This document shows positions 2,221-17,386 of a stretch of DNA of 64,000 bases, in pieces. The position numbers were made by a program, and so were the translations under genes. The number at the start of each line of letters is the position of its first letter. Within the stretch, counting starts at the first letter, position 1. The DNA lies in the IMG/VR virus record IMGVR_UViG_3300028581_000036, positions 7,041-71,040 of that record; one strand, given 5' to 3'. The notes under the pieces were generated by a model that did not search any database, was not told the origin of the DNA, and saw only the letters and a list, made by a program, of their open reading frames with translations. The DNA comes from a virus.

Positions 2221-2736
2221 ATGAAATACATTAAAACGTTTGAAAGCTTCTTAAATGAAAAAGCGCCAGAGACTGGCCTGATGTTTATACCAAAAACACA
2301 GGTTGGTGCAAATAAAATGAATACAGCACTACAGGGGTCTGGACTGTCTGCAGAATGGAATGCACGTGAAGGTTACTTCTTATTTCCAGAAGAAGAAGTA
2401 AATTATGATACTCTTGAAGTTGAAATACAAAAACTTGCTGACCAAAATGGAATTGACGGTCGCATAGAGGGTATCTTTGAAAACCAAAGTACTTCAAAAG
2501 ACGATATAAAAAGCATTGAATATGTTGAAACTACACCAGGTAATAGATTATATAAACTAATAGTAAAATTAGCAAACGGTGAAGAAAAGAAACTCAGTTC
2601 AATTGGCAATCTAAATAAGGAATTTGGACTTGATATAGATGAATACTTAAACAGAGATTCAGCCGGTTTTGAAAAAGAGGTAAAGAATAAATACCCTGAT
2701 ATTGAAGTATTAACAAGCGAATTTGATGTTTCTTAA
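2221..2736 (+). CDS. hypothetical protein with capsid-targeting-like leader
   Basis: N-terminus MKYIKTFESFLNEK. Confidence 0.75.
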   Translation: MKYIKTFESFLNEKAPETGLMFIPKTQVGANKMNTALQGSGLSAEWNAREGYFLFPEEEVNYDTLEVEIQKLADQNGIDGRIEGIFENQSTSKDDIKSIEYVETTPGNRLYKLIVKLANGEEKKLSSIGNLNKEFGLDIDEYLNRDSAGFEKEVKNKYPDIEVLTSEFDVS

Positions 2737-2738
2737 AA

Positions 2739-3050
2739 ATGAAGTATATTAAAACGTTTGAGAGTTTTATAAACGAGTCAAATAAGTTTGAACTCTTTGT
2801 AGCAAATGACAACACATATTTAAAGTCAGGTGAAGTACATCTGGAGATACCTGAAAAAGAAGATGGCGCTATATTAATTGGGTCACGTGAAAAATTGGCA
2901 AAGATTTATTACTTAAAACCTGGCATAATGGTCGTTAAGGGCGGCGGCACTGAACAGGAGTTTACAAACATAGAAAAGCTGGTAACATGGTTAAATCAAA
3001 ATAACTGGTCATATATAACAAAAGACGATAATGAGAGACCCGATAATTGA
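2739..3050 (+). CDS. hypothetical protein with capsid-targeting-like leader
   Basis: N-terminus MKYIKTFESFINES. Confidence 0.75.
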   Translation: MKYIKTFESFINESNKFELFVANDNTYLKSGEVHLEIPEKEDGAILIGSREKLAKIYYLKPGIMVVKGGGTEQEFTNIEKLVTWLNQNNWSYITKDDNERPDN

Positions 3051-4074
3051 ACATAACAGACAGCTGAGTATTAAGGCCTGGGTCGAACAAGGTAAGCGAA
3101 CATTAAATGAATCTTTTAAAAACACGCCGATTGCTGCAGCAGGTTCCGGTATTGGTTCAGGCGGTGTAGTAGTTGGCCCAGGGCCAGATCCAGGCCCTGG
3201 GCCAGAGCCTCCGCCAGTGCCTGTTAGTGCCAATCTTATATTGTCTGTAGATATAGATACTGATCCATATACATTTGGGTTTGAAATTACAACCAGTACA
3301 GAGAAGGGTTTAACAGTAGTAGTAGACTGGAATGGTGTTGATATAACTACAGACCAGGTTGCAGCAGGTTCAACAAAACACATAATTAGTTATAATTATA
3401 CATCAGCTGATATATTTACACCTGTAATTGTGTTCAGTGATGTAAGTGCAGTTGAGGGTTTATTTTTTGATTGGCCTGTAGATAACAGCGGATCAGGTCG
3501 TATTAATAATATCCTTAATAGCGATCTTGTAAATTTAACAGCATTAACTGAACTAAGTTTTACAGAAAACAGTATTCCGGAGTTAAACTTATCAGGTCTT
3601 AATTTACAGACTATTACTGTAAACGACGATTCTGCGCTTGGGACACTTATTGTTGAATCTTCAATCATAGGTGAATTGTCTGTGACATCTTGCAACGGTT
3701 TAAATAACTTTTCGTGCGGAGGTTCAGAGTTTACTGATAATCTGGTGATATCAAACTGCAAGGCTTTATCTTTTTTAAGTCTTGCAAGCATTAATATATT
3801 AAGAGGTTTAGATATATCTGAAAATGCTAATTTAGATAAAGTTGAATTACCTTCTGAAAATTCTTTAGCCGGTGAAGGAATTATTATAACTACATATCAT
3901 TCACCAATAACATCAGAAGACGTCGATTCATTAATACAGAACATTTTAAACTCTGGCATTCTTACAGGATCTTTAGATTTAAGAGGTAGTGGCGCACCAG
4001 GCGAGAAAGGATTGGTGGATATAGTTAAATTAAATGAACCTCCGCGCGAATGGACAGTTTTATATACTGTCTAG
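3031..4074 (+). CDS. leucine-rich-repeat-like protein with Gly/Pro linker
   Basis: GPGPDPGPGPEPPP linker, beta-rich domain, then LxxLxLxxN-like repeats (LTALTELSFTEN, LRGLDISEN). Confidence 0.6.
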   Translation: MRDPIIEHNRQLSIKAWVEQGKRTLNESFKNTPIAAAGSGIGSGGVVVGPGPDPGPGPEPPPVPVSANLILSVDIDTDPYTFGFEITTSTEKGLTVVVDWNGVDITTDQVAAGSTKHIISYNYTSADIFTPVIVFSDVSAVEGLFFDWPVDNSGSGRINNILNSDLVNLTALTELSFTENSIPELNLSGLNLQTITVNDDSALGTLIVESSIIGELSVTSCNGLNNFSCGGSEFTDNLVISNCKALSFLSLASINILRGLDISENANLDKVELPSENSLAGEGIIITTYHSPITSEDVDSLIQNILNSGILTGSLDLRGSGAPGEKGLVDIVKLNEPPREWTVLYTV

Positions 4075-4079
4075 TTTTC

Positions 4080-4121
4080 TGCAAATTTCTTTATTAATCT
4101 AAATTTTTATTGTATATTTGC
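4080..4121 (+). promoter_or_regulatory. class 1 promoter: TGCAA ... TAnnTTTR (Bacteroidota -7-like element)
   Basis: TGCAA 4080, TATATTTG 4113; same 33-nt offset in five other intergenic copies. Confidence 0.7.
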
Positions 4122-4282
4122 ATGTGTTTAATAAACATTTCTTTATTATTACATATATTAATTACAATAACCTGTACCCTTGAAAAACTCGTATTATTCA
4201 AACTATTGGTAATTTACCGATAGTCCCTGATAGATAAGCAGGCTAGCTCCTATATAAAGGGGTAAGAGAATAAGGAGCAAAT

Positions 4283-4426
4283 GGCCAGGTTGCGGAATGT
4301 TTTGAAGCGACTTCAAAACTTGGAAAACGCTAGACAAGTAACTCACTAAGTGCATTTTGCGCAAATGCTTCTATATTGAGTAAAAATCTACCAGACGTGG
4401 TGTAGGTTCGAATCCTACTCTGGTCA
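4283..4426 (+). ncRNA. tRNA-like RNA (144 nt) with hairpin insertions in D-loop and anticodon arm
   Basis: Acceptor GGCCAGG/TCTGGTC-A; T-arm GTAGG-TTCGAAT-CCTAC; D-stem GCG/CGC; variable arm CCA-GACG-TGG; no canonical anticodon loop. Confidence 0.7.
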
Positions 4427-4472
4427 CAAATAAACATTTTTAATAAACTAGTATAATTTTAAAATAATTAAC

Positions 4473-5381
4473 ATGAAAAATAACAGTCTTTCGGCAACAG
4501 GCCTTTCGCTTTCACAAGCGCAATCTATTAGCAATCTTTGTTTTCAGAGAGCAAAGCAAATTGAATCAACTTTATCGATAGTTAATAACTGCACAAAGGA
4601 GTTGAAACTGAATGATGAAAATTATATTGAAACTGCCGGCAATAGAATGCCTTCTAATGTAATAGACCTATTAACTCAAAAATCAAGATTACATGCCTGT
4701 CAGGCTTTTCTAATGGATAACATCAAGGCAAAAGACTCTTTGTTAAAAGACTTGCAAAACAAGAAATTTGTAACTGATTTAAAACAACCAGCTGAACCTG
4801 AGTTAGATCGCTTCACTGAAGCACTATTGGTTGATGAACAATGGGGCTGGTCGCAGCTTTCTATTGGCGAATATAATGAATATCTTGAAGCTGAGGCTTT
4901 TGCATCACATATTGGCCAGTTCATCCATAGAAATGGTAAGCTAGATGAATTACGCAAAGAATTACCTGATATCAAGACACTTGAGTGGATTAATATTAAA
5001 GACGGTGAGAAGACACCTCTTAAAATTACAATCCACCATACTGCACAGGAATTGCTTGATTTACACGAAGAGCTTTCAGCTATGCATCGTCAATATGAGC
5101 AGCGTGTAAATTACTTCAAAGCCAAGGTTAAAAATATGGTAACAGAAGAAAATGCACGTATCTCAAAAGAAAATTCTATTAAAATGGCTGAGACAAATAG
5201 TGCGAATAATATTCGTATAAAAGAATTTGAAAATGCGTATAAGTCTTATCAGGCTGAATTTCTTAAATTAAAACAAGACTTTGAAGAAGCTCGTCAAGTT
5301 GAAATTAAAAATATTGCATCACTGAGAATCCAGGTCGATCCAAGATTTCAAGCTATGATTGACGTGTTTTTATCTAAATAA
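4473..5381 (+). CDS. alpha-helical/coiled-coil hypothetical protein (302 aa)
   Basis: Long ORF, heptad-like C-terminal half; lies directly upstream of a structured RNA. Confidence 0.8.
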   Translation: MKNNSLSATGLSLSQAQSISNLCFQRAKQIESTLSIVNNCTKELKLNDENYIETAGNRMPSNVIDLLTQKSRLHACQAFLMDNIKAKDSLLKDLQNKKFVTDLKQPAEPELDRFTEALLVDEQWGWSQLSIGEYNEYLEAEAFASHIGQFIHRNGKLDELRKELPDIKTLEWINIKDGEKTPLKITIHHTAQELLDLHEELSAMHRQYEQRVNYFKAKVKNMVTEENARISKENSIKMAETNSANNIRIKEFENAYKSYQAEFLKLKQDFEEARQVEIKNIASLRIQVDPRFQAMIDVFLSK

Positions 5382-5430
5382 AATAAAGGTGGTCCAGAAT
5401 TAAGCATAAGCCTATATTCTGTACTTTTGT

Positions 5431-5674
5431 ACCAAGTGGTTTGGTTTTTATAATACAGGATATTAATATTCGCCGCTTCATGTGGCCTACAAAAACAAAC
5501 CGCTTCCTCACAAAATCTAAAAACTGAGATAGAACTCAAAGTTAGACAGGTTATCCCGTTGTGGAAAAATTGGCTAACAAAAAGAGACTTGGTTTTTGAC
5601 TTTGCCTTTGAAGTGAGGAAGGTCTTTGGCTTAGATTTTGTTTTAGACTTTATCTATATGCCAAATCATTTGGT
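5431..5674 (+). ncRNA. putative structured ncRNA with phased GNYTTN hexamers
   Basis: 15-bp closing stem 5431-5445/5660-5674 (3 G-U); CTTCCTCAC 5503/GTGAGGAAG 5613; AAAATCTAA 5512/TTAGATTTT 5631; hexamer phase 5586-5651. Confidence 0.6.
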
Positions 5675-5686
5675 AACTTTATAATA

Positions 5687-5776
5687 ACGGGATTGGTGAA
5701 TTGGTATACACGGCTTACTAAAGCGTAAGTTGACATGCGAACATGTCGTCTAGAGTTCGAGTCTCTGGATCCCGTC
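5687..5776 (+). tRNA. non-canonical class II tRNA-like gene (8-nt anticodon loop, 6-bp T-stem); identity undetermined
   Basis: ACGGGAT/ATCCCGT acceptor; GTG-AATTGGTATA-CAC D-arm; GCTTA-CTAAAGCG-TAAGT; GACATG-CGAA-CATGTC variable arm; CTAGAG-TTCGAGT-CTCTGG. Confidence 0.65.
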
Positions 5777-5818
5777 GAGTGAGTTCTTTGAAATAAAAAT
5801 AAAAATAAATTAGAAAAA

Positions 5819-6196
5819 ATGGAAACAATTTCAACATTCGTTTTAGGTGCTCTTAGTGGCCTGTTCCTTATAGGGATAATCTACGCTTTTATAGGAGTGC
5901 TTAAGATTACACAGTCAGTACATCTTTTAAAAGATGAAGTAAAAAAGCTTAATATCATAAGAGACGAAGACCATCGATTTTTCGACGAAAGATTTACCGT
6001 AATAATTAATGATGCAGAGAAGACAGCTTCTGAATTATTTGCCGATACTTGCAGGCTCAGGGATGAACTAGCAGAAGAGGTGAACAAGGCACATCAATAT
6101 ATTGACAGTCGCCTAGACAAAAGCATACAGACTATATCCAATCGCATGGATGCTCTGTTTGTAAAGAAAGACGTTCAACAACAACTTAACTCGTAA
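5819..6196 (+). CDS. membrane-anchored coiled-coil hypothetical protein
   Basis: N-terminal hydrophobic helix FVLGALSGLFLIGIIYAFIGVL. Confidence 0.75.
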   Translation: METISTFVLGALSGLFLIGIIYAFIGVLKITQSVHLLKDEVKKLNIIRDEDHRFFDERFTVIINDAEKTASELFADTCRLRDELAEEVNKAHQYIDSRLDKSIQTISNRMDALFVKKDVQQQLNS

Positions 6197-6219
6197 AAAC
6201 AAAAGAACTCACTCAATTC

Positions 6220-6247
6220 AGGTCTGGATATTATCCAGACCTTTTTT
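6220..6247 (+). terminator. intrinsic terminator
   Basis: AGGTCTGGATA-T-TATCCAGACCT followed by T-run. Confidence 0.85.
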
Positions 6248-6269
6248 ATGATATATACCAAAACCTTCT

Positions 6270-6566
6270 ATGAAAAACTTTAAAAACTTTTCAGATTTTA
6301 TTTTCGAGAAATACGACAGTTCTATTGAATCTGGCCTTAAAAAGAAAAGTGAAGAAACTGGTGCGCCGCTTGGCATTTTACGTAAAGTATTTGACAGGGG
6401 TATGGCGGCTTGGAAAAGTGGTCACAAACCTGGTACTGGACAAGAACAATGGGCATACGCCAGAGTAAATTCATTTGTACTTGGGAAAAAAGGTACTTGG
6501 GGAGGTGCAGACAAGGATCTTGCTAAAGAGGCACGAGAAAAAGGTTTTAATCCCAAATCTAAATAA
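6270..6566 (+). CDS. small conserved viral protein (DUF5824-like) with capsid-targeting-like leader
   Basis: RGMAAWKSGHKPG...QWAYARVNSF motif; leader MKNFKNFSDFIFE. Confidence 0.65.
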   Translation: MKNFKNFSDFIFEKYDSSIESGLKKKSEETGAPLGILRKVFDRGMAAWKSGHKPGTGQEQWAYARVNSFVLGKKGTWGGADKDLAKEAREKGFNPKSK

Positions 6567-6835
6567 TGAGTTTAGTTAAATCATATAGCGACTGGTTATC
6601 TGAAGAGTCAAAAGATCCCTATTTTAAGGGTCTTAGTAAGTCTACAATTAGTGCAAAAAAGGCACAGATGAAAAAACAGGCCAAAATGCCCGATGACGAT
6701 CCTGCTGCTTATAAAGAATTGCCAGGTGACACTAAAGGCAAAAGCGCTCTTAAGCCTTCGCCCACTACCGGTAAGTATCAAGAAGTATATGGAAAAAAGA
6801 AAAATGAAAATAACGGCGATACACCTAAATTATAA
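6566..6835 (+). CDS. basic hypothetical protein with capsid-targeting-like leader
   Basis: YFKGLSKST...DDDPAAYKELPGD; leader MSLVKSYSDWLSEE; TAATG coupling to previous gene. Confidence 0.7.
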   Translation: MSLVKSYSDWLSEESKDPYFKGLSKSTISAKKAQMKKQAKMPDDDPAAYKELPGDTKGKSALKPSPTTGKYQEVYGKKKNENNGDTPKL

Positions 6836-6866
6836 TAACGATAAATATACTAAATAAATTTAAACA

Positions 6867-7307
6867 ATGGCATACGTAAACTCATATCATTCATTTGCAA
6901 ATACAATTAATGAAGCTGCTAAATACACTGAAGATAATAGAATAGGCACGCTTGCATTATACGGCCTTTGTCTAAGAGACCAAATTCATATTTTCCACTG
7001 GCAAACAGAAATTGGCGATATGCACAAAGCCCTTGGTGATTTTTATGATGCCTTTCTTTTAAGCTTTGATAATTTAATGGAAAGTATAATGGGTAAATAT
7101 GGCCGTTTTAAAGTTAGCACACTTGGCATGCCTGTTACATTTCTTGATTTAAACCAGGTTAACCCCGATGAATTTGCCCAAACCTATGTTCAGGTTTTTG
7201 AAAATTACAAAACTACTGTGTTCAATAACGACACAGAGATTATTAATATAATCGAAGAGATAATTGCATCTATACATAAATTGCAATACCTTCTTACAAT
7301 GTCTTAA
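6867..7307 (+). CDS. ferritin/Dps-like protein (DUF5856-like)
   Basis: HIFHWQT...HKALGDFYD...D.LMESIMGKYGR...YLLTMS pattern. Confidence 0.7.
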   Translation: MAYVNSYHSFANTINEAAKYTEDNRIGTLALYGLCLRDQIHIFHWQTEIGDMHKALGDFYDAFLLSFDNLMESIMGKYGRFKVSTLGMPVTFLDLNQVNPDEFAQTYVQVFENYKTTVFNNDTEIINIIEEIIASIHKLQYLLTMS

Positions 7308-7345
7308 TCTTAAACGACATTTCTGCAACCTGACAAGCCAAAAAC

Positions 7346-7387
7346 TGCAACAATCTTTTAATTGTCAGAATCATTACTTATATTTAC
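7346..7387 (+). promoter_or_regulatory. class 1 promoter
   Basis: TGCAA 7346, TATATTTA 7379. Confidence 0.6.
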
Positions 7388-7467
7388 TCTATAGCATTTA
7401 ACAGGGCCTATAACTCATAATCAACATTAATTGAGTTGGTTCCAAACATGCTCTCATATATTTAAAA

Positions 7468-8124
7468 ATGAAACTATTATTAGAAAAAGGTCAACATCTT
7501 TGGTTTACAAGCGATACGCATTATAATCATAGCAATATTTGCAGATCAACTACCAAGTGGGAGAATGCAGAAGATGTAACACGTGACTTTAAGTCACTGG
7601 ACCACATGAACTCTGTAATCGTTGAATCAATTAATGATGCTGTCGGTGAAAATGATATACTAATACATCTTGGTGATTGGTCATTTGGTGGTTTTGAAAA
7701 AATAAAAGAGTTTAGAAATAAGATCGTGTGTAAAAATATACATCTTGTCCTAGGCAACCACGATCATCATATTGAAAGAAATAAAGATGATGTACGCAGG
7801 CTTTTTTCATCCGTACAGCACTATATTAATCTTGATGTCAGAAGGCCGAGTTCTTATAAAAAGGGTGAAATGGACCAGTATAATTTTATACTAATGCATT
7901 TTCCAATTGCCAGCTGGGACGGTATGAACAATAACGCAGTACACTTACATGGCCATGTTCATTTACCTGCTGCTAAGAGAATAGCAGCAGGTAAAGCAAT
8001 GGATGTCGGAGTAGACGGCAATTACATGAAACCTATATCACTAGATGAAGTATTATCTTTAATGAAAAATAGGCCTATTGTAAAGCTTGCACTGCCTCAA
8101 GACCATCATGAGAAAAAATTATAA
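7468..8124 (+). CDS. calcineurin-like metallophosphoesterase
   Basis: SDTH, HLGD, GNHD, MHFP, HGHVH, DVGVD motifs. Confidence 0.9.
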   Translation: MKLLLEKGQHLWFTSDTHYNHSNICRSTTKWENAEDVTRDFKSLDHMNSVIVESINDAVGENDILIHLGDWSFGGFEKIKEFRNKIVCKNIHLVLGNHDHHIERNKDDVRRLFSSVQHYINLDVRRPSSYKKGEMDQYNFILMHFPIASWDGMNNNAVHLHGHVHLPAAKRIAAGKAMDVGVDGNYMKPISLDEVLSLMKNRPIVKLALPQDHHEKKL

Positions 8125-8224
8125 ATTTAGTATAAATGGTTATAGATAGCAAAAAACCCTCAATGACGCAAAACCGCTGTTACCTGCTGGGCGGTTTATC
8201 AGTAGGAACTTTAAAAGAAACAAA

Positions 8225-8587
8225 ATGAGTTTAGATGTTTATTTAACACGAAAAAAATGGATTAGCTACGATGCTGGCAAAACATTAACAGAAGAAGAAG
8301 AAACTGTTTACGATGCAAACATTACCCATAACTTAGGTAAAATGGCACGTGAAGCAGGAATTTATGAAGCACTTTGGCGACCAGAAGAAATTGGCAAAAC
8401 AAAGGCGAGTGAAATAGTTGAATTGCTTGAAAAAGGATTAGCTGATTTAAAAGCAAGACCTGAACATTTTGAAAAATTCAACTCGCCTAACGTATGGGGA
8501 ATGTATGAACATTTTGTTCCTTTTGTCGAAAAGTATTTAGAAGCCTGTAAAGAATATCCTGATGCTATTATCGGAGTGTCAAGGTAG
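8225..8587 (+). CDS. cassette gene, hypothetical protein
   Basis: 120 aa (ANITHNLGKMA...); bracketed by GTTACCTGC 8179 and GCAGGTAAC 8592. Confidence 0.85.
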   Translation: MSLDVYLTRKKWISYDAGKTLTEEEETVYDANITHNLGKMAREAGIYEALWRPEEIGKTKASEIVELLEKGLADLKARPEHFEKFNSPNVWGMYEHFVPFVEKYLEACKEYPDAIIGVSR

Positions 8588-8597
8588 CCTTGCAGGT

Positions 8598-8683
8598 AAC
8601 GATTGGGTGTATGAGAAGGTTTGCTTTGATGAATTTTCAAATTACCACTACTGCTGATAGCAAACTTTCTTATACACCTTGTT
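8598..8683 (+). repeat. attC-like hairpin 1
   Basis: AAC-GATTG-GGTGTATGAGAAGGTTTGCT ... AGCAAACTTTCTTATACACC-TT-GTT. Confidence 0.85.
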
Positions 8684-8800
8684 ATACACAGTACGGTTTA
8701 TTAAGGTAGAATGTTGATTTGAAACACGAATAAAAACTTTTTAAAAATGTGCGGTGGAAAATTTAATTCTGAATATTTATATATACAAATAAACTTTAAT

Positions 8801-9139
8801 ATGAAAAAGGAACTTAAACATTTGAAAACATTTGAACAGAACACAGATAAAAACTTGAATATATCTGGTGTTATACAACGGAATTTGTTATTATCAAAAT
8901 CTGATATTGAATACTTACGAAGTGTCGGATTTACACAAGATAATTCAAAAAATTCTGGTCTTTATTATTATGAAGATGATAATAAAACTAAGGTAATTGT
9001 ACCACAAGAAGATGGTACATATAAATTAGAATTTTATGAATGGTGTGATGATGGTGATGGTAATTATTACGAAGATTTTGATAAGGAATATAGTAAAAAA
9101 GGACAAACATTACAACAATTTATAGAAGATTGGATTTAA
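8801..9139 (+). CDS. cassette gene, acidic hypothetical protein; first 23 codons lie upstream of the GTT core at 8870
   Basis: ATG 8801 after A-rich leader; GTTATACAAC 8870 and GTTGTATAAC 9144. Confidence 0.75.
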   Translation: MKKELKHLKTFEQNTDKNLNISGVIQRNLLLSKSDIEYLRSVGFTQDNSKNSGLYYYEDDNKTKVIVPQEDGTYKLEFYEWCDDGDGNYYEDFDKEYSKKGQTLQQFIEDWI

Positions 9140-9150
9140 TTATGTTGTAT

Positions 9151-9236
9151 AACGGTTGCAAATATATGTAGGTTTTTTGTAACAAATGCTTAAAATTTAC
9201 GTATAACTTAATAAAAACTTACATATATTTGTTGTT
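9151..9236 (+). repeat. attC-like hairpin 2
   Basis: AAC-GGTTG-CAAATATATGTAGGTTTTT ... AAAAACTTACATATATTTG-TT-GTT. Confidence 0.85.
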
Positions 9237-9295
9237 ATGTGTATGTATTTTAATTTTTTGTGCGTGGGAAATATTAACTTAAAAATAGAAATAAA

Positions 9296-9505
9296 ATGGA
9301 AAAATTTATTGAAGTAAACGGAAACTGGTTGTTTAGTGATGAACATTTTTTATTGACTGAACGAGGTTGGCTAAAGGCAAAAGAACTACAAAATGGTGAT
9401 AAAGTTATTGGGGTGAAAGGAGAATCGACAATAAAAAATATTATAGAATGTGGAGAACGACCAGATGCACCGATTATTGGTGAAACAGGTGCGGTGGGAA
9501 ATTAA
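9296..9505 (+). CDS. cassette gene, minimal Hint/intein-like fragment
   Basis: SDEHFLLTERGWLKAKELQNGDKVI resembles Hint block B; ends in Asn; bracketed by GTTATGTGTA 9234 and TACACATAAC 9511. Confidence 0.65.
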   Translation: MEKFIEVNGNWLFSDEHFLLTERGWLKAKELQNGDKVIGVKGESTIKNIIECGERPDAPIIGETGAVGN

Positions 9506-9517
9506 AATATTACACAT

Positions 9518-9641
9518 AACGTGTTTGCGCTTGGCGCAGTGGTGGACTTCGGAGTGAAAAACTTTCAAGTTACCACCAAAGCCGATGCAAGGCACGATGT
9601 TGAATTAACCACTAAACCCGCCATTGAGCCAAACGCATGTT
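9518..9641 (+). repeat. attC-like hairpin 3
   Basis: AAC-GTGTT-TGCGCTTGGCGCAGTGGTGG ... CCGCCATTGAGCCAAACGCA-T-GTT. Confidence 0.85.
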
Positions 9642-9711
9642 AGGCGATGGCACGGTTAAATTAGTAGAAACTTAAAAACCTTGTGGTGTAAAGGCGAACC
9701 GCATATATAAA

Positions 9712-10320
9712 ATGACAAATACACAAAAATTTGCAAAGCAAGAGTTGGATATTCTTGCAGCAACAGTTCCAGATGCGATTGTAACACCATTCGCTAAAGA
9801 AATCTTAGCTTTATGTGAAGCATTTGGTAAATCAGGACAAAGTGGTGGTTCAGCACCATACACAGCATCAGCCATTGCACAATCGGTAAAAAAATTGTGC
9901 TTACAAGAGCCTATTTGTGATGTAACAGGACACGATAATGAGTGGGTTGATGTTGCCGAGTGGATGGGTGAACCAATGTATCAAAATGCAAGATGTGGCG
10001 GATTGTTTAAATACCAAAACGGGAAATGTAGCTATAATGATGCTATTGTTTGGAAAGGAGAAGAAGAACACGACACATTCACAGGCAGAGTTTACATTGA
10101 CGATAAGGATTTTGAACTGATTGGAAGTAGCCAATATGCAAGATTTCCATTTAAACCAAAAACATTTTATATTGACGTGGTTCGTGTTCCGATTACAAAA
10201 GATGATGCGGAAAAAAGAGGGATGCATTACATTGAGGATGGTTTTGGAGAATGTTACTACACGGTATTGAAAGACCCTAAACAACTTGAAAAGGTTTTTA
10301 AATACTATGACAAAAAGTAA
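9712..10320 (+). CDS. cassette gene, hypothetical protein (FxxxGQSGGSA motif)
   Basis: 202 aa; bracketed by GTTAGGCGA 9639 and TCGCCTAAC 10364. Confidence 0.85.
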   Translation: MTNTQKFAKQELDILAATVPDAIVTPFAKEILALCEAFGKSGQSGGSAPYTASAIAQSVKKLCLQEPICDVTGHDNEWVDVAEWMGEPMYQNARCGGLFKYQNGKCSYNDAIVWKGEEEHDTFTGRVYIDDKDFELIGSSQYARFPFKPKTFYIDVVRVPITKDDAEKRGMHYIEDGFGECYYTVLKDPKQLEKVFKYYDKK

Positions 10321-10369
10321 TTTAACGGGCAGGCACTATCGGATTAGCAGTTCGGTAGTGCTTTCGCCT

Positions 10370-10491
10370 AACGGTCGCAGGTATATTTAGTGCCTGATTA
10401 AATAGTAGAAACTTTCAAAATAGTAGAGAATATGAAAAATAAACAAATGTTAAAAACTGCGCAGAAACAGGCATTAAATATACCTGTTGTT
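10370..10491 (+). repeat. attC-like hairpin 4 (loop holds start codon of next gene)
   Basis: AAC-GGTCG-CAGGTATATTTAGTGCCTG ... CAGGCATTAAATATACCTG-TT-GTT; ATG 10432 in loop. Confidence 0.9.
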
Positions 10492-10722
10492 ATAGGTAGT
10501 GCTTTTGTTTCAATTTTTGATAGATTCGGGGTTACTTGTTACAATGAACACGACACTATTGACGATGCGATTAAATCATTAGAATACGGAAGTGATGAAG
10601 GTTTAATTATGGATATTGCTGTGATTGAAACAAAGACTAAACAAATGGTATGGTATCAAAAGTTTTTAGGTAAACATGAATGTAAAGCAAAGGTAGATAT
10701 GTTTGTTCAGCATTACCTATAA
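10432..10722 (+). CDS. cassette gene, hypothetical protein
   Basis: Stop TAA lies inside TACCTATAAC 10714, complementary to GTTATAGGTA 10489. Confidence 0.8.
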   Translation: MKNKQMLKTAQKQALNIPVVIGSAFVSIFDRFGVTCYNEHDTIDDAIKSLEYGSDEGLIMDIAVIETKTKQMVWYQKFLGKHECKAKVDMFVQHYL

Positions 10723-10805
10723 CGTCTGGCAATATATGTAGTTGCCATGTAGAAACTTAACAAATTAGTATAAACCTTAATGGGCAATTACATATATTGC
10801 TTGTT
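10721..10805 (+). repeat. attC-like hairpin 5
   Basis: AAC-GTCTG-GCAATATATGTAGTTGCC ... GGCAATTACATATATTGC-TT-GTT. Confidence 0.9.
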
Positions 10806-10821
10806 AGCAAACGTAATTATT

Positions 10822-11016
10822 ATGGCAAAAAGTTTAGAAAAAGAACCAATGATTATACCAAACGAATATGATGGATTATGGTCGGCATATTATGTTGAAA
10901 TTATATTCCACAACGGGAATAAATCACATCCAATTAAATTAGATGAAGGTGTTCGTGGGATAAACTGCAAATGTAAGGTAACTGTTGATGAGGATGGTTG
11001 GCTTTATGTTTGCTAA
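10822..11016 (+). CDS. cassette gene, hypothetical protein (alternative in-frame start 10780 inside hairpin)
   Basis: GTTAGCAAAC 10803 and GTTTGCTAAC 11008; stop inside TAAC. Confidence 0.75.
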   Translation: MAKSLEKEPMIIPNEYDGLWSAYYVEIIFHNGNKSHPIKLDEGVRGINCKCKVTVDEDGWLYVC

Positions 11017-11137
11017 CGGAAAAGTATTGGCGATGTTGCCAATTTGAAAAACAAATGTTCAAAATTTAAACAAAAGTTGATATGAAAATTGAAGTTAAAA
11101 TAACCGATGAAGCTGGCAATTTTGCCAATACCGTGTT
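11015..11137 (+). repeat. attC-like hairpin 6 (loop holds start codon of next gene)
   Basis: AAC-GGAAAA-GTATTGGCGATGTTGCCA ... TGGCAATTTTGCCAATAC-CGT-GTT; ATG 11082 in loop. Confidence 0.85.
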
Positions 11138-11405
11138 AGGTGCAGTTTATTTTTTCCCAAATTATATGATAGAACACATAATTGAACTATCACAAGAATA
11201 TAAAGAAATTGTTTCATTATCAGATATTGAAAAGTTTAAAAGCATTGCAACCGCTTACGATGAAACTTATATTAGCCAATTGATTTCAAACTGCGTCAAT
11301 TGGACAATGAAAAAAGATTGGGATGATAAATACTACCAAAAATTAAAAAGAGATGAAATTAAAACACTTGAAAGAGTAAAGTATCGGGTCAAACGTGGTC
11401 GCTAA
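11082..11405 (+). CDS. cassette gene, hypothetical protein
   Basis: GTTAGGTGCA 11135 and TGCACCTAAC 11408. Confidence 0.75.
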   Translation: MKIEVKITDEAGNFANTVLGAVYFFPNYMIEHIIELSQEYKEIVSLSDIEKFKSIATAYDETYISQLISNCVNWTMKKDWDDKYYQKLKRDEIKTLERVKYRVKRGR

Positions 11406-11469
11406 ATTGCACCTAACTATTATATATAAACAACTCTATGCAACTGACTGATTATTAATACTTTATAAC

Positions 11470-11682
11470 ATGAAAAAGACTGACTATTACAAAATCTGTG
11501 AACAAAAATTGAAGAACTTCAAACTGCAGCAGGCCATGAACCGCTTATGAGTGTTATCCCGACTAAGAATAGGTATCACCTGATTACTAGGCCTTTTAAT
11601 ATTAAACTATTAGAGCCATTGATGTACAGTGGGGCCGTTGTTCGATATTCACAAGGATAATCCAACTGTTCTTTATTTATAG
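11470..11682 (+). pseudogene. frameshifted remnant of a phage hypothetical gene
   Basis: IPTKNRYHLITRPFN and DIHKDNPTVLY segments occur in different frames; pattern recalled from phage proteins, not searched. Confidence 0.45.
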
Positions 11683-11688
11683 GATTAT

Positions 11689-11730
11689 TGCAAATTACTT
11701 TTTTATTTAAAACATTATATGTATATTTGA
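11689..11730 (+). promoter_or_regulatory. class 1 promoter
   Basis: TGCAA 11689, TATATTTG 11722. Confidence 0.7.
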
Positions 11731-11733
11731 ATT

Positions 11734-12150
11734 ATGACAGACAATAAAATTAAAATTTATTTAGACGACGTTAGAACCCCGGTTGAAAAGAATTGGGTTG
11801 TCGTAAGAAGCTATGATGAGTTCATAGCCAAAGTAAATGAAATTGGTTTAGAAAATATCGATTTTATTTCATTAGACCATGATCTAGGCGACTCAGCAAT
11901 GAAGGAATGGCATAAAAATGTGTATCACAACTATACATTAGACTACAACAGCATTACTGAGAAAACAGGCTATGATTGTGCTAAATGGTTGGTTGAACAG
12001 TGGATGGAAGGACAATCTGTTGTTGATGTGTACACCCATTCAGCAAATGCTATTGGCAGTGCAAACATCATGGGCTACATCAACAATTTCAGACACATAA
12101 ATCACTTACCGCAAAATTGTGTTAGAGTACAAATAGAACACACGGTATAA
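11734..12150 (+). CDS. cyclic-phosphate-processing receiver-like domain protein
   Basis: YLDDVR, ISLDHDLG, TGYDCAKWL, HSAN motifs. Confidence 0.75.
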   Translation: MTDNKIKIYLDDVRTPVEKNWVVVRSYDEFIAKVNEIGLENIDFISLDHDLGDSAMKEWHKNVYHNYTLDYNSITEKTGYDCAKWLVEQWMEGQSVVDVYTHSANAIGSANIMGYINNFRHINHLPQNCVRVQIEHTV

Positions 12151-12159
12151 TAGTAAAAC

Positions 12160-12312
12160 ATGAACAGCACAATACATCTTATTTTTCAGGAAGCAAAAAA
12201 CATGACAAGTTCACATTATGAAGACTATATTGCACTTAGTGCAATCGCTGCAGTCGTGGCAGTTGCGTTCTGGTTGAGTTTTAAAAATAATTCTAAATTA
12301 GAAACAGAATAA
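12160..12312 (+). CDS. small membrane protein (50 aa, not in ORF track)
   Basis: ATG 12160 to TAA 12312; YIALSAIAAVVAVAFWLSF helix; fills the gap between neighbours. Confidence 0.55.
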   Translation: MNSTIHLIFQEAKNMTSSHYEDYIALSAIAAVVAVAFWLSFKNNSKLETE

Positions 12313-12314
12313 AA

Positions 12315-13451
12315 ATGGAAAATTTAAACAGCGTGGCCTATGTAGCCAGAATTAATGAAATTAAACCCATTGAGGGCGCCGATAATATTGAACAGGCAGT
12401 TGTAGGAGGATGGAATTGTATTATCCAAAAAGGACAATATACTGAAGGCGGATTAGTTGTAGTAGCAACAACAGACGCAGTCATTCCGCAAAATCTTTCT
12501 GATAAGATGAATGTAACTAATTACTTGCGTAAAGGTCAACGAGTACGTACTGTAAAGTTAAGAGGTGTATATTCAGAGTGTTTGATTATTCCGTTGCTTT
12601 ACATACTTAAGGGTAATATTGATACTTACACTGAAGGTAAGGATATGATGGAAGTAATGGGCATCTCTAAATATGAACCGCCTATTAAGCAGGTTCAATT
12701 AGCATCAGGTAAAAAGATTAAATATCAATCAAATCCTAACTTCCATGTCTACTATAAGTTTCCAAACATTAAAAATGTTCCTGGAATATTCACTGAAAAG
12801 GATAACGTACAGATTACTCTCAAACTCCATGGAACCAATGCCCGTTATGGAATTGTAAAGAAGACTAAACTATCTTTAATAGATAAAGTCAAAAAGTTTT
12901 TTCGACTTGCAGATAAGTGGATTGATTATGAATTTGTGGTAGGTTCCCATAATGTTGAAAAAGGTTCTGATTCACAAGGATACTATGACACCAACGTCTG
13001 GTATGATATCGCTGATAAATACAAGCTAAAAGAAAAACTTTGGCATTATGTTAAGGTAAGAGCAAGTGTTGATAAAATAGAGGCAGGTGTGGTTATATAC
13101 GGAGAGATATATGGTCCAGGCATACAGAAAAACTACGACTATGGTTTAAAAGAGTTGGAGTTTGCTGTGTTTGATGTTACCTGGAATAATGAGTATGAGA
13201 ACGCAATTCGCACTGAGCATGTTGTTAAAAATGCTTTAATGCTTCCTCATGTTCCTGTTTTGTATACTGGCTGTTGGTCTCAAGGGGTACAAGACAAGTA
13301 TGTGTTTAATAACGTAATTGAAGGCACTAAAGTACCACATGAAGGAATTGTAATTAAGCACGTAAGTGGTAAAAGACAAAATATAGCCAAGGCCATCAAT
13401 CCGGATTACTTAATTTATGGAGAAAAGCACGATGTAGGTGATAGTCATTAA
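12315..13451 (+). CDS. RNA ligase, DRB0094/Rnl2-like family
   Basis: N-terminal IEGADNIE OB-like domain; KLHGTN, GEIYGPGIQ, FDV, HEGIV, AKAIN motifs. Confidence 0.9.
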   Translation: MENLNSVAYVARINEIKPIEGADNIEQAVVGGWNCIIQKGQYTEGGLVVVATTDAVIPQNLSDKMNVTNYLRKGQRVRTVKLRGVYSECLIIPLLYILKGNIDTYTEGKDMMEVMGISKYEPPIKQVQLASGKKIKYQSNPNFHVYYKFPNIKNVPGIFTEKDNVQITLKLHGTNARYGIVKKTKLSLIDKVKKFFRLADKWIDYEFVVGSHNVEKGSDSQGYYDTNVWYDIADKYKLKEKLWHYVKVRASVDKIEAGVVIYGEIYGPGIQKNYDYGLKELEFAVFDVTWNNEYENAIRTEHVVKNALMLPHVPVLYTGCWSQGVQDKYVFNNVIEGTKVPHEGIVIKHVSGKRQNIAKAINPDYLIYGEKHDVGDSH

Positions 13452-16993: not shown

Positions 16994-17038
16994 GAATATG
17001 CTAAATTTAATTATAAAACAACATATAAAAATAAAAAC

Positions 17039-17386
17039 ATGTATCAAATAATCAAGAAAGATAGAAAAACTCTTAAGAGTAGATTTCTAATCGACCAGTC
17101 TAATGAAGTAATTGAATTTGAAAACAGAGACGAGGCTTCTAAATTTTGTGATATTTTAAATGTAAATTCAACTGGCCATATTTACTTAGTAAAAAGCATC
17201 TATGAATCTTCAACAGGTGATAAAGTAACTGAAGAACTGGACCATGTAAATACTTTACTTAAAAAGGCGCAAAGACATGGACTAGAAGCAGAGTGTGTAG
17301 TTTTTGCACTTAAGTATATGCAAGAGAATCCGGCATTATCAATCAATCAGGCCATGTCCTATGGTTTTAATGAATGGGTAAAATGA
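17039..17386 (+). CDS. hypothetical protein
   Basis: ATG 17039 after A-rich leader, in frame with ORF 16976..17386. Confidence 0.7.
   Translation: MYQIIKKDRKTLKSRFLIDQSNEVIEFENRDEASKFCDILNVNSTGHIYLVKSIYESSTGDKVTEELDHVNTLLKKAQRHGLEAECVVFALKYMQENPALSINQAMSYGFNEWVK

Follow-up and report, generated by a model that had tools for sequence, protein, structure and literature searches.

The DNA analysed here is a stretch of 64,000 nucleotides (the window), which corresponds to positions 7,041 to 71,040 of the IMG/VR virus record IMGVR_UViG_3300028581_000036 (G000:C1:7041-71040); coordinates refer to the window and features lie on the + strand, unless stated otherwise. Its segment 8179-11550 can with good confidence be read as an orphaned array of seven mobile cassettes (C1 to C7) that belongs to an integron-like system of Bacteroidota phages. 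The array is regarded as orphaned because all that remains at its end is the terminal site and a recombinase gene reduced to its first 15-16 codons. What the analysis shows directly is the anatomy of the array, the mobility and the boundaries of its cassettes, their linkage to a recombinase in relatives and the remnant of that gene in the window, as well as a folding bias between the strands, leaders that run in frame and a cargo gene of the Tad3 family. Integrons are the textbook gene capture and reshuffling device of bacteria and they are defined by the IntI integrase. For the general picture we lean, with some reserve, towards the view that Bacteroidota phages, and apparently also chromosomes, run an integron-type gene capture distinct from IntI integrons. 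Its recombinase would be short and Xer-like and its terminal insertion site simple, while its attC-like hairpins, folding on the coding strand, would double as portable expression modules that supply a start codon and often a shared leader; with it phages would trade small accessory and anti-defence genes, and the window would hold a decayed member of which the recombinase was deleted.

Paired ends and private cores of the cassettes

The original prediction, made from the sequence of the window, described seven open reading frames (ORFs), each bracketed by its own GTT-X/X'-AAC pair. All seven pairs are present at the coordinates given there as exact 9-mers (7/7) and they form a consecutive, non-overlapping chain from 8179 to 11417, the sole such chain in the contig. 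When the inverted repeats of the region are ranked by length, six of the seven appear in the top 25, extended to 14-16 nt with 86-93% complementarity. Over the whole 71-kb contig, 28 GTT+6...AAC 9-mer pairs were counted, compared to 14.25 +/- 3.86 (maximum 25) in 100 block shuffles; the remaining 21 pairs are scattered and mostly A+T-rich chance pairs, and two lie upstream of the window, one of these being a real solitary cassette. Loose half-sites are uninformative, as they occur at chance levels across the window (TAAC-N6-10-KTATR: 15 versus 16.9 expected per strand; YATA-N5-9-GTTA: 39 versus 35.4 expected per strand).

The claimed cassette specificity of the complementarity is borne out by the cores: with its own 3' partner the 6-nt core behind GTTA agrees on average at 5.71 of 6 positions, compared to 1.81 of 6 with the other partners, and the observed core-match total was reached in 1 of 5040 permutations. 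The mismatch of 1-2 nt that had been described within the end stems is constant (7/7 cassettes): about 11 nt from the cassette end, the 5' arm has a G and the 3' arm has a T facing it. Expressed as G in the 5' arm and A in the reverse complement of the 3' arm, this asymmetry has a single orientation in all seven window cassettes, and nearly all cassettes of 16 other loci, which were oriented independently via the leader hairpin, share it.

Mobility of the cassettes

Cassette C4 (9639-10372; GTTAGGCGA...TCGCCTAAC) contains an ORF at 9712-10320 that encodes a protein of 202 aa of the Tad3 family (PF25185, E 3.6e-23, 82 bits versus a cut-off of 27, residues 3-121 of 202), and for its C-terminal 80 residues there is no match. 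The Tad3 family inhibits type I Thoeris. Homologs of C4 were found in 24 viral loci. In eight of them (L110-L114, L120, L124, L125) homology starts at 9610-9648, with the GTTA at 9639, and ends at 10363-10383, with the TAAC ending at 10372, and the downstream sequence is unrelated; in seven others (L115-L118, L121-L123) the gene is located in ordinary, non-cassette surroundings. In four of the eight loci both cores have changed complementarily from GGCGA/TCGCC to GCAAC/GTTGC, one of the four with a single mismatch, which argues that the end pairing is under selection.

For C1 (8179-8600; GTTACCTGC...GCAGGTAAC; ORF 8225-8587, 120 aa, PHROG 4019 of unknown function) there are homologs in 28 viral loci. 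Homology stops 0-21 nt past the TAAC at 8600 in 16 of the 28, seven of them exactly at 8600, and these 16 have 7 different upstream and 13 different downstream contexts. In 14 loci it starts at 8162-8173. Three groups of C1 loci share the upstream site and differ downstream, and the reverse pattern was found in none. The loci L099 and L106 share a site together with the cassette downstream of it (94.8% identity over 479 nt); the shared stretch begins at the upstream TAAC and ends 12 nt behind the TAAC of the cassette itself. A site tends to travel with the gene downstream of it. Discrete units thus recur in different arrays as in integrons (C4 in eight loci, C1 in 16), and by these alignments the window cassettes are mobile units bounded at GTTA and TAAC. 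A fixed gene order without gain or loss at AAC/GTT boundaries had been named as the observation that would speak against a cassette array; in related DNA gain, loss and re-assortment were all found at these boundaries.

The terminal site and the recombinase

The statement of the original prediction that the window contains no tyrosine recombinase holds for an intact gene, which is present neither in the window nor in the contig: a search of the 71-kb contig for PF00589 found no match, while the same search was positive in 14 of 14 genomes serving as control. The 5' end of such a gene is present at the end of the array. Behind the last TAAC there is a non-palindromic, attI-like terminal site (11418-11469; TATTATATATAAACAAC...) that extends to a recombinase start codon, and this is followed by the tyrosine recombinase stub (11470-11550), which begins with MKKTDYYKICEQKLK and continues with unrelated residues up to the stop codon at 11548-11550. 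In at least 30 recombinase loci the terminal spacer and the 5' end of the recombinase gene show homology to the segment 11404-11525; the first residues of the stub are identical to the L172 recombinase at 14 of 15 positions and then diverge, and the DNA homology ends at about 11525. The rest of the gene was searched for by tblastn with the enzymes of G002 and G006 in the contig and in its tail 11401-11760, and nothing was found past the first 13-15 codons. The recombinase gene is thus deleted except for its first 15-16 codons. The integrase that had been assumed to act from elsewhere in the phage or the host was once encoded at the end of the array itself, of which the stub is what is left.

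In the relatives G002 and G006 an ORF encoding a recombinase of 267-268 aa begins 37 and 56 nt past the last cassette on the same strand, and the layout of the terminal site is comparable in G002, G006 and L172. A search with the G002 recombinase alone found 3 loci, two without arrays; with an alignment of three enzymes 80 viral loci were fetched. Same-strand cassettes are located upstream of the recombinase in 53 of the 55 loci that have at least 1500 nt upstream (49 with two or more), amounting to 262 same-strand cassettes and 4 on the opposite strand over the 55 loci, and a same-strand cassette downstream was seen in 2 of the 77 loci that have at least 1500 nt downstream. In 37 of the 53 loci a gap of 37-86 nt separates the end of the last cassette from the start of the recombinase match. 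The co-occurring recombinase, for which a search had been suggested, is a Xer-like enzyme directly downstream of such arrays (53/55 loci). Among the records that contain hairpin site 4 of the window, described below, a tyrosine recombinase is encoded in 4 of 10; if only the 6 records with a completeness of at least 90% are considered, it is 4 of 6.

The array-linked recombinase has 267-279 aa and consists of a SAM-like N-domain (PF13495) and PF00589. Its best NCBIfam model is the XerA type NF040815, with 177-197 bits under the cut-off of 220, and its nearest solved relatives are archaeal XerA enzymes (5hxy, E 2e-35). The integron-integrase model TIGR02249 gives 156-158 bits versus a cut-off of 265 and NF011946 gives 103-107 bits versus 435; the match to VchIntIA (2a3v) covers residues 13-172 only, and an IntI-type integrase with the IntI-specific additional segment is not found among the linked recombinases. 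By these comparisons the array-linked recombinase is Xer-like and not an IntI. As a separate observation, the Cellulophaga phage phi13:2 (L001) carries at 2680-7783 an array in which about 15 small ORFs are combined with the same TAAC/GTTA sites, hairpin 4 among them. The tyrosine recombinase behind this array has 433 aa and belongs to a different, larger type (PF00589, E 6.5e-9).

Nested arrays in cultured Polaribacter phages and relatives in bacteria

A member of the same recombinase family (37.6% identity) is annotated as integrase in the Polaribacter phages Freya_1 to Freya_10, the genomes of which range from 43,978 to 48,920 bases. Freya_1 and Freya_10 have flanks that are 100% identical over 9155 and 2403 nt and they differ by a block of 4942 nt with 12 small ORFs, located directly upstream of the recombinase. 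Freya_9 is without only the last unit of this block and Freya_5 is without about 3.2 kb of it. The co-isolated phages Freya_1, 5, 9 and 10 (L326-L332) thereby present a ladder of nested blocks with 0 to 12 small ORFs, in which each block joins the terminal site immediately behind AAC; the sequence across all four junctions is [C/T]AAC, directly followed by ACCCCTATAAC. The arrangement known from integrons, with recombinase and simple site at one end of the array and the newest cassettes beside them, is found here as well (53/55 loci; Freya ladder). Most of the block is contained in the first 4.2 kb of the Freya_10 record, and Danklef phages have 38% of these 4.2 kb in common with it at 97.3% identity. 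In the available text of the paper describing the Freya phages the integrase gene is taken as a sign of a temperate lifestyle, and the words cassette, indel and variable region are absent from that text. The Freya phages constitute a ready, cultured experimental system for testing the mechanism proposed below.

Relatives of the recombinase (40-56% identity) also occur in bacteria and are common in Bacteroidota genomes; 80 such loci were fetched (L246-L325), mostly titled Bacteroidota. Same-strand cassettes upstream were found in 4 of 68 of these loci and opposite-strand cassettes downstream in 21 of 47, 13 with two or more. The layout of recombinase and cassettes in these bacterial loci differs from that in phages.

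The hairpin sites and their leaders

The TAAC-to-GTTA spacers between the cassettes have lengths of 269, 80, 118, 116, 79 and 117 nt, and their DNA-fold z-scores are, in this order, -1.9, -4.6, -2.3, -3.7, -5.6 and -4.4 (100 shuffles each). Six hairpins of one architecture had been described. Stable hairpins do separate the cassettes and all six sites are imperfect palindromes bounded by AAC and GTT as in integrons; the first spacer (8601-8869) deviates, being a compound of a hairpin, a stub and a half-site. The 5-6 and 1-3 unpaired nt that had been placed at the feet of the hairpins are not seen in the minimum-energy folds, which pair TAACG with YGTTA. These folds continue with a 3-nt bulge in the left arm (four of six spacers) and an A+T-rich stem of 18-20 bp, and the loops have 30-70 nt. 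When the two ends of a cassette are set on either side of its upstream spacer, the order expected for a circle, the fold is a single continuous hairpin of about 35-45 bp.

Hairpin site 4 (10373-10488, 116 nt) also occurs outside the window. A 25-nt stretch of its right arm recurs exactly in 16 other viral loci (17 copies) on contigs of 7 to 327 kb, including the Cellulophaga phages phi13:2 and phi19:3, and around the copies similarity spans from TAAC to GTTA and ends there in all of them. An ATG at 10432 is located in the loop and the right arm encodes a leader ending in ...QALNIPVV (MKNKQMLKTAQKQALNIPVV), which runs in frame into cassette C5. One copy differs in length by an in-frame 3 nt, and at all distinct complete junctions (13/13) the leader frame continues into the cargo for 43-122 codons without a stop, both of which argue for translation of the leader, while the other two frames mostly close within 0-25 codons. 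Three window junctions contain the start codon of the cassette downstream (C2, C5 and C7), and the C7 protein is found elsewhere as leader only (residues 1-21 to 1-34; 3 loci). The sites thus seem to double as expression modules that supply a start codon and an in-frame N-terminal leader. The loop motif GAAACTTTCAA was considered as promoter candidate; with up to 2 mismatches it occurs 57 times in the window compared to 45.5 +/- 6.9 expected, and 6 of 100 shuffles reach 57, so that it is not enriched and was dropped.

Logan contigs of metagenome runs, compared over 7400-12400, end at hairpins. Summed over the contigs, the depth is about 5-15 times higher at the hairpin modules than at neighbouring cassettes (8569-8735, 9404-9737 and 11074-11240; four lake/freshwater runs), and the contigs pass from hairpins into other cargos, which argues that the modules are multi-copy across the phage community. 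One joint in the Logan contigs, from 9318 to 11219 with 27 foreign letters between and a side of 22, has low support and is too weak for use.

A proposed mechanism for cassette exchange

The platform for modular gene shuffling of integron type that the original prediction proposed gains support from the C1 and C4 boundaries, the compensatory cores, the recombinase linkage and the Freya blocks. A cassette has GTTA and a private core of 5-6 nt at one end and the complementary core and TAAC at the other, with imperfect palindromes of 80 or 117 nt between successive cassettes. If a cassette were closed to a circle, its two private ends would lengthen the palindrome to a single long hairpin, corresponding to the R boxes in attC. 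In relatives the Xer-like recombinase of 267-279 aa follows directly after the last cassette behind the short non-palindromic terminal site; at this site cassettes come and go precisely behind AAC, a turnover that the recombinase would catalyse. Turned over, the layout would be that of a canonical integron, with the recombinase, the simple site and then cassettes that each have their palindrome on the far side; in this orientation it is the strand other than the top strand that folds better. What differs from a canonical integron is the strand of the cargo, and for this reason the palindrome precedes its gene and supplies its start. Catalysis by the Xer-like recombinase, folding of single-stranded DNA, circular intermediates and the exact position of the crossover are proposed features of this scheme, and the alignments appear to resolve the crossover to within AAC. 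Without enzyme from a co-infecting phage or from the host, the array of the window is probably frozen.

Several points weigh against this reading. Two of the 6 records with hairpin 4 that are at least 90% complete are without a PF00589 gene, recombinase relatives at 30% identity (L100, L101) stand without an array, and the enzyme is linked to the sites by adjacency only. Five C1 loci have end cores that do not match (L134, L140, L141, L142, L148), and C1 copies of 88-96% identity are located behind 7 different upstream sites, so that a site is not strictly tied to its cassette. The resemblance of the six sites to attC is one of architecture. Circle junctions were not found in the assembled Logan contigs, which cannot show rare forms. 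The bias of folding towards the coding strand with its G.T pairs, reported below, would be equally expected from mRNA structure. Finally, the cassette detector that underlies the counts for the wider spacer set, the phage recombinase loci and the bacterial loci is our own; it uses an exact 9-mer and the G/A signature and it misses ends of the CAAC/GTTG type.

Alternative explanations

The hairpins could be regulatory cassettes similar to the stem-loop elements of T4-type phages known as PeSLs, that is, hairpins with promoter, terminator or translation-start function, shuffled by homologous recombination without a site-specific recombinase. This fits the position of the array in a hyperplastic region, where relatives have other genes, the start codons and A-rich leaders in the loops, the recurrence of the modules in many phages and the 5-15x depth of the hairpin bins in metagenome contigs, and PeSLs are described, in the text available, as mediating shuffling and mini-circles (PMC2839356, PMC4122927). 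We consider it unlikely, as homologous recombination needs homology on two sides, whereas homology at the cassettes stops exactly at TAAC even where the sequence beyond is no related hairpin. The cassette-specific pairing of the ends and its compensatory change are left unexplained by it, and so are the distance of 37-86 nt at which the recombinase follows the array and the coincidence of the four Freya junctions at a single phosphodiester position. The PeSLs of the published descriptions, as far as available, comprise a sigma-70-type early promoter and a short G/C-rich terminator stem and are exchanged by homology; the sites of the window have A+T-rich stems of 18-20 bp with AAC/GTT feet and do not show this combination.

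A purely RNA-level role would make the hairpins and the long-range stems around the ORFs elements of transcripts that serve processing, stability or translational control, with the DNA rearrangements being incidental. The strand bias of the folds, which also counts for the integron-like reading, is what such a role predicts: of the two strands the coding strand folds more stably for 5 of 6 spacers of the window, for all composite sites (6/6) and for 29 of the 31 spacers in the wider set (Wilcoxon p = 2e-6), G.T pairs, compatible with G.U in RNA, make up 78 of 1003 pairs (7.8%) on the coding strand compared to 25 of 824 (3.0%) on the other strand, thus being about three times commoner on the sense strand, and start codons lie in loops. 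However, precise DNA breakpoints, recombinase linkage and the Freya ladder are not explained by RNA structure, and no known RNA family fits, because the 7 Rfam matches obtained for 7900-11900 at E <= 5 are all far under their gathering scores. As a full account this has a low probability, although an RNA role may exist alongside recombination. The polarity of folding is in any case opposite to that of canonical integrons.

The array could also be a canonical cluster of attC sites lacking an integrase (CALIN) that was captured from a bacterial integron and depends on an IntI of the host. The sites resemble attC in their AAC...GTT cores and in being imperfect palindromes, and in the available text of PMC9892861 attC clusters without integrase are reported in 17 phages, including the Polaribacter phage P12002L, with 5 of 6 phage attC sites assayed recombining with IntI1. 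P12002L has a TAAC-hairpin-GTTA site of the same family and a GTTAGGCAC/GTGCCTAAC bracket around a methyltransferase gene, the same kind of bracket as in the array; the identity of the P12002L sites examined here with those assayed in PMC9892861 is not confirmed by the available part of that paper. The window combines six attC-like sites with the lack of an intact integrase, and the stub derives from a non-IntI recombinase. The linked enzyme remains far under the cut-off of TIGR02249, has its best match in the XerA-type model and aligns to VchIntIA only up to near residue 172. It is located at the opposite end of the array relative to the direction of the genes, the better-folding strand is reversed and the sites contain start codons; cargo that reads away from the integrase together with a bottom-strand fold, as in integrons, is not what is found. 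Capture from a bacterial integron is thus very unlikely.

Invertible segments (invertons or a shufflon), in which ORFs flip between their own inverted repeats of 14-16 nt with a common GTTA core and the private spacers as crossover regions, are extremely improbable, as inversion would exchange the inner arms and give both states, whereas all ORFs are on one strand and the G/A asymmetry has one orientation in 7/7 window cassettes and in nearly all leader-oriented cassettes of the 16 other loci. The inverton was rejected together with a miniature inverted-repeat transposable element with palindromic target, given the constant orientation and the pairing of the ends across the ORF rather than across the hairpin.

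Anatomy of the array and its genomic setting

An orphaned, integron-like cassette array is accordingly the frame in which the remaining features are listed. The upstream edge (8125-8178) is without left arm or TAAC and consists of a right-arm remnant ending in AAAACCGCT before the first GTTA; a full hairpin is found at this place in several of the 14 C1 loci in which homology starts at 8162-8173. The 5' end of C1 (8168-8227) is, besides, 90% identical over 60 nt to positions 579630-579690 of LR756502.1, a 642-kb uncultured phage record. The compound junction behind C1 comprises hairpin site 1 (8601-8680, 80 nt), then a stub that is the 5' part of a further cassette, beginning with GTTATACAC at 8681 and reaching to about 8736, and a half-site up to 8869 with an ATG at 8801 and a leader ending in LNISGV; positions 8597-8736 are 85% identical to L099 8603-8745, which is a hairpin with the first 58 nt of the next cassette. 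C2 (8870-9153; GTTATACAAC...GTTGTATAAC) has an ORF at 8801-9139 that begins in this half-site.

Hairpin site 2 (9154-9233, 80 nt; -12.6 kcal/mol, z -4.6) is of a short type without start codon and is related to site 5 and to L106 17693-17782. C3 (9234-9520; GTTATGTGTA...TACACATAAC) carries an ORF of 69 aa (9296-9505); both its ends are homologous to the L106 cassette 17030-17354 and the middle is not. The C3 ORF has a weak, sub-threshold match to PT-HINT (pretoxin HINT; PF07591, E 0.0028, 18.4 bits versus a cut-off of 27.7). A direct repeat similar to GTGCGGTGGGAAAT was noted at 8746-8766, 9262-9280 and 9488-9505, in the 5' leader of C3 and before its 3' end stem, and such a repeat also precedes the 3' ends (X'-TAAC) of two L125 cassettes; the hairpin model leaves it unexplained. 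Diverged relatives of hairpin site 3 (9521-9638, 118 nt) precede the C4 homologs in L110-L113. C5 (10489-10723; GTTATAGGTA...TACCTATAAC) has its ORF at 10432-10722 with the start codon inside site 4, and it is followed by hairpin site 5 (10724-10802, 79 nt, short type, z -5.6) and C6 (10803-11017; GTTAGCAAAC...GTTTGCTAAC; ORF 10822-11016, 64 aa). Hairpin site 6 (11018-11134, 117 nt), with an ATG at 11082 and the leader MKIEVKITDEAGNFANTV, is 82% identical to L088 9134-9250 and opens the ORF (11082-11405) of C7 (11135-11417; GTTAGGTGCA...TGCACCTAAC).

Upstream of the window, at G000:C1:3432-3737 (L165), one more cassette of this kind stands alone (GTTAGGTGTAGTTTA...TAAATTACACCTAAC); its ORF is fused to a leader. 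Behind it come TAGTATGTAT, similar to the terminal site that precedes the recombinase of L125, and an ORF (G000:C1:3921-4835) that was rejected as recombinase, as it encodes a KaiC/RecA-like ATPase. In L125 an "empty" mini-cassette of about 29 nt overall, consisting of GTTAGCAAA, a few nt and TTTGCTAAC without cargo, is located between ORFs 3783-3983 and 4178-4681, flanked by two hairpin sites.

The record that hosts the array has 71,040 bases, a G+C content of 33% and nearly all genes on the + strand, and its completeness is estimated by CheckV at 26%. Its nearest cultured relatives at the DNA level are Flavobacterium phages of the Immutovirus group, and the runs with this stretch (24 listed), available as Logan contigs, are lake and freshwater metagenomes. 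Around the array a set of genes similar to RNA repair is split: a phosphoesterase (7468-8124, PHROG 547) lies on one side, and a cREC_REC cyclic-phosphate-processing receiver domain (11734-12150, PF20274, E 3.5e-23) and an RNA ligase (12315-13451, PHROG 968) lie on the other, while in relatives such as L056 the three genes are close to one another. Between the phosphoesterase and p138/RNA ligase, relatives have other genes. In 80 loci fetched around the RNA ligase of related phages none of C1-C7 was found (0/80), and the count of 9-mer pairs is near chance (250 versus 212 expected). The array region is therefore hyperplastic, and the comparison of RNA-ligase loci gives no information on the boundaries.

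Comparison with known systems

The closest sequence relatives of the array-linked recombinase are archaeal XerA-type recombinases (NF040815; PDB 5hxy, 4a8e). XerA resolves chromosome dimers at dif sites. The array-linked enzyme differs in that it stays under the NF040815 cut-off of 220 bits and is linked to cassette arrays, on which XerA does not act.

PeSLs of T4-type phages are similarly intergenic stem-loops with expression signals in hyperplastic regions, they flank small accessory genes and they are tied to modular shuffling and mini-circles, as far as the available text of PMC2839356 and PMC4122927 goes. They are the nearest regulatory analogue of the phage sites. In contrast, their shuffling is attributed there to homologous recombination between similar modules, and AAC/GTT cores, cassette-specific end pairing and a linked recombinase are no part of that description.

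Phage CALINs (PMC9892861) resemble the array of the window in being attC-like site arrays in virulent-type phages without intact integrase, and the P12002L bracket is alike. In the accessible text they are, unlike here, treated as bacterial integron parts carried by phages and assayed with IntI1, and a dedicated Xer-like recombinase, a flipped polarity or leader-encoding sites are not described in that text. Clusters of attC in phages are thus already published, whereas the architecture found here occurs in no paper searched, as far as their available text goes. The literature searched holds no description of a Xer-like recombinase serving such arrays, of the reversed polarity or of leader-encoding sites; the supplementary tables of PMC9892861 (attC coordinates) and PMC8776804 (genome comparisons), which lay outside the search, may bear on novelty.

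If the mechanism is true, it shows lytic phages swapping small accessory and anti-defence genes at single-gene resolution, and more tyrosine recombinases than thought would be capable of acting on folded sites. Reading the cargo of these arrays offers a practical route to new anti-defence genes.

With integrons, in particular with sedentary chromosomal integrons that have one attC family per array, the phage arrays share single-gene cassettes and imperfect palindromes with AAC...GTT feet, a cassette 5' end that complements the start of the cassette's own site, cassettes that recur from one array to another, an array end with both a tyrosine recombinase and a non-palindromic insertion site, new cassettes beside this site (here the Freya ladder) and one strand that folds better. 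They differ in their recombinase of 267-279 aa, which is Xer-like, under the IntI cut-off and without the IntI-specific segment, in cargo genes that point towards the recombinase, in a coding strand that is the better-folding strand, in sites that contain start codons and leader peptides, in end stems of 14-16 bp with a fixed G.T pair and in being hosted by phages. The recombination sites here would also encode protein starts, and the array of the window would be part of a virus-borne system parallel to integrons, with another recombinase clade and a reversed gene polarity.

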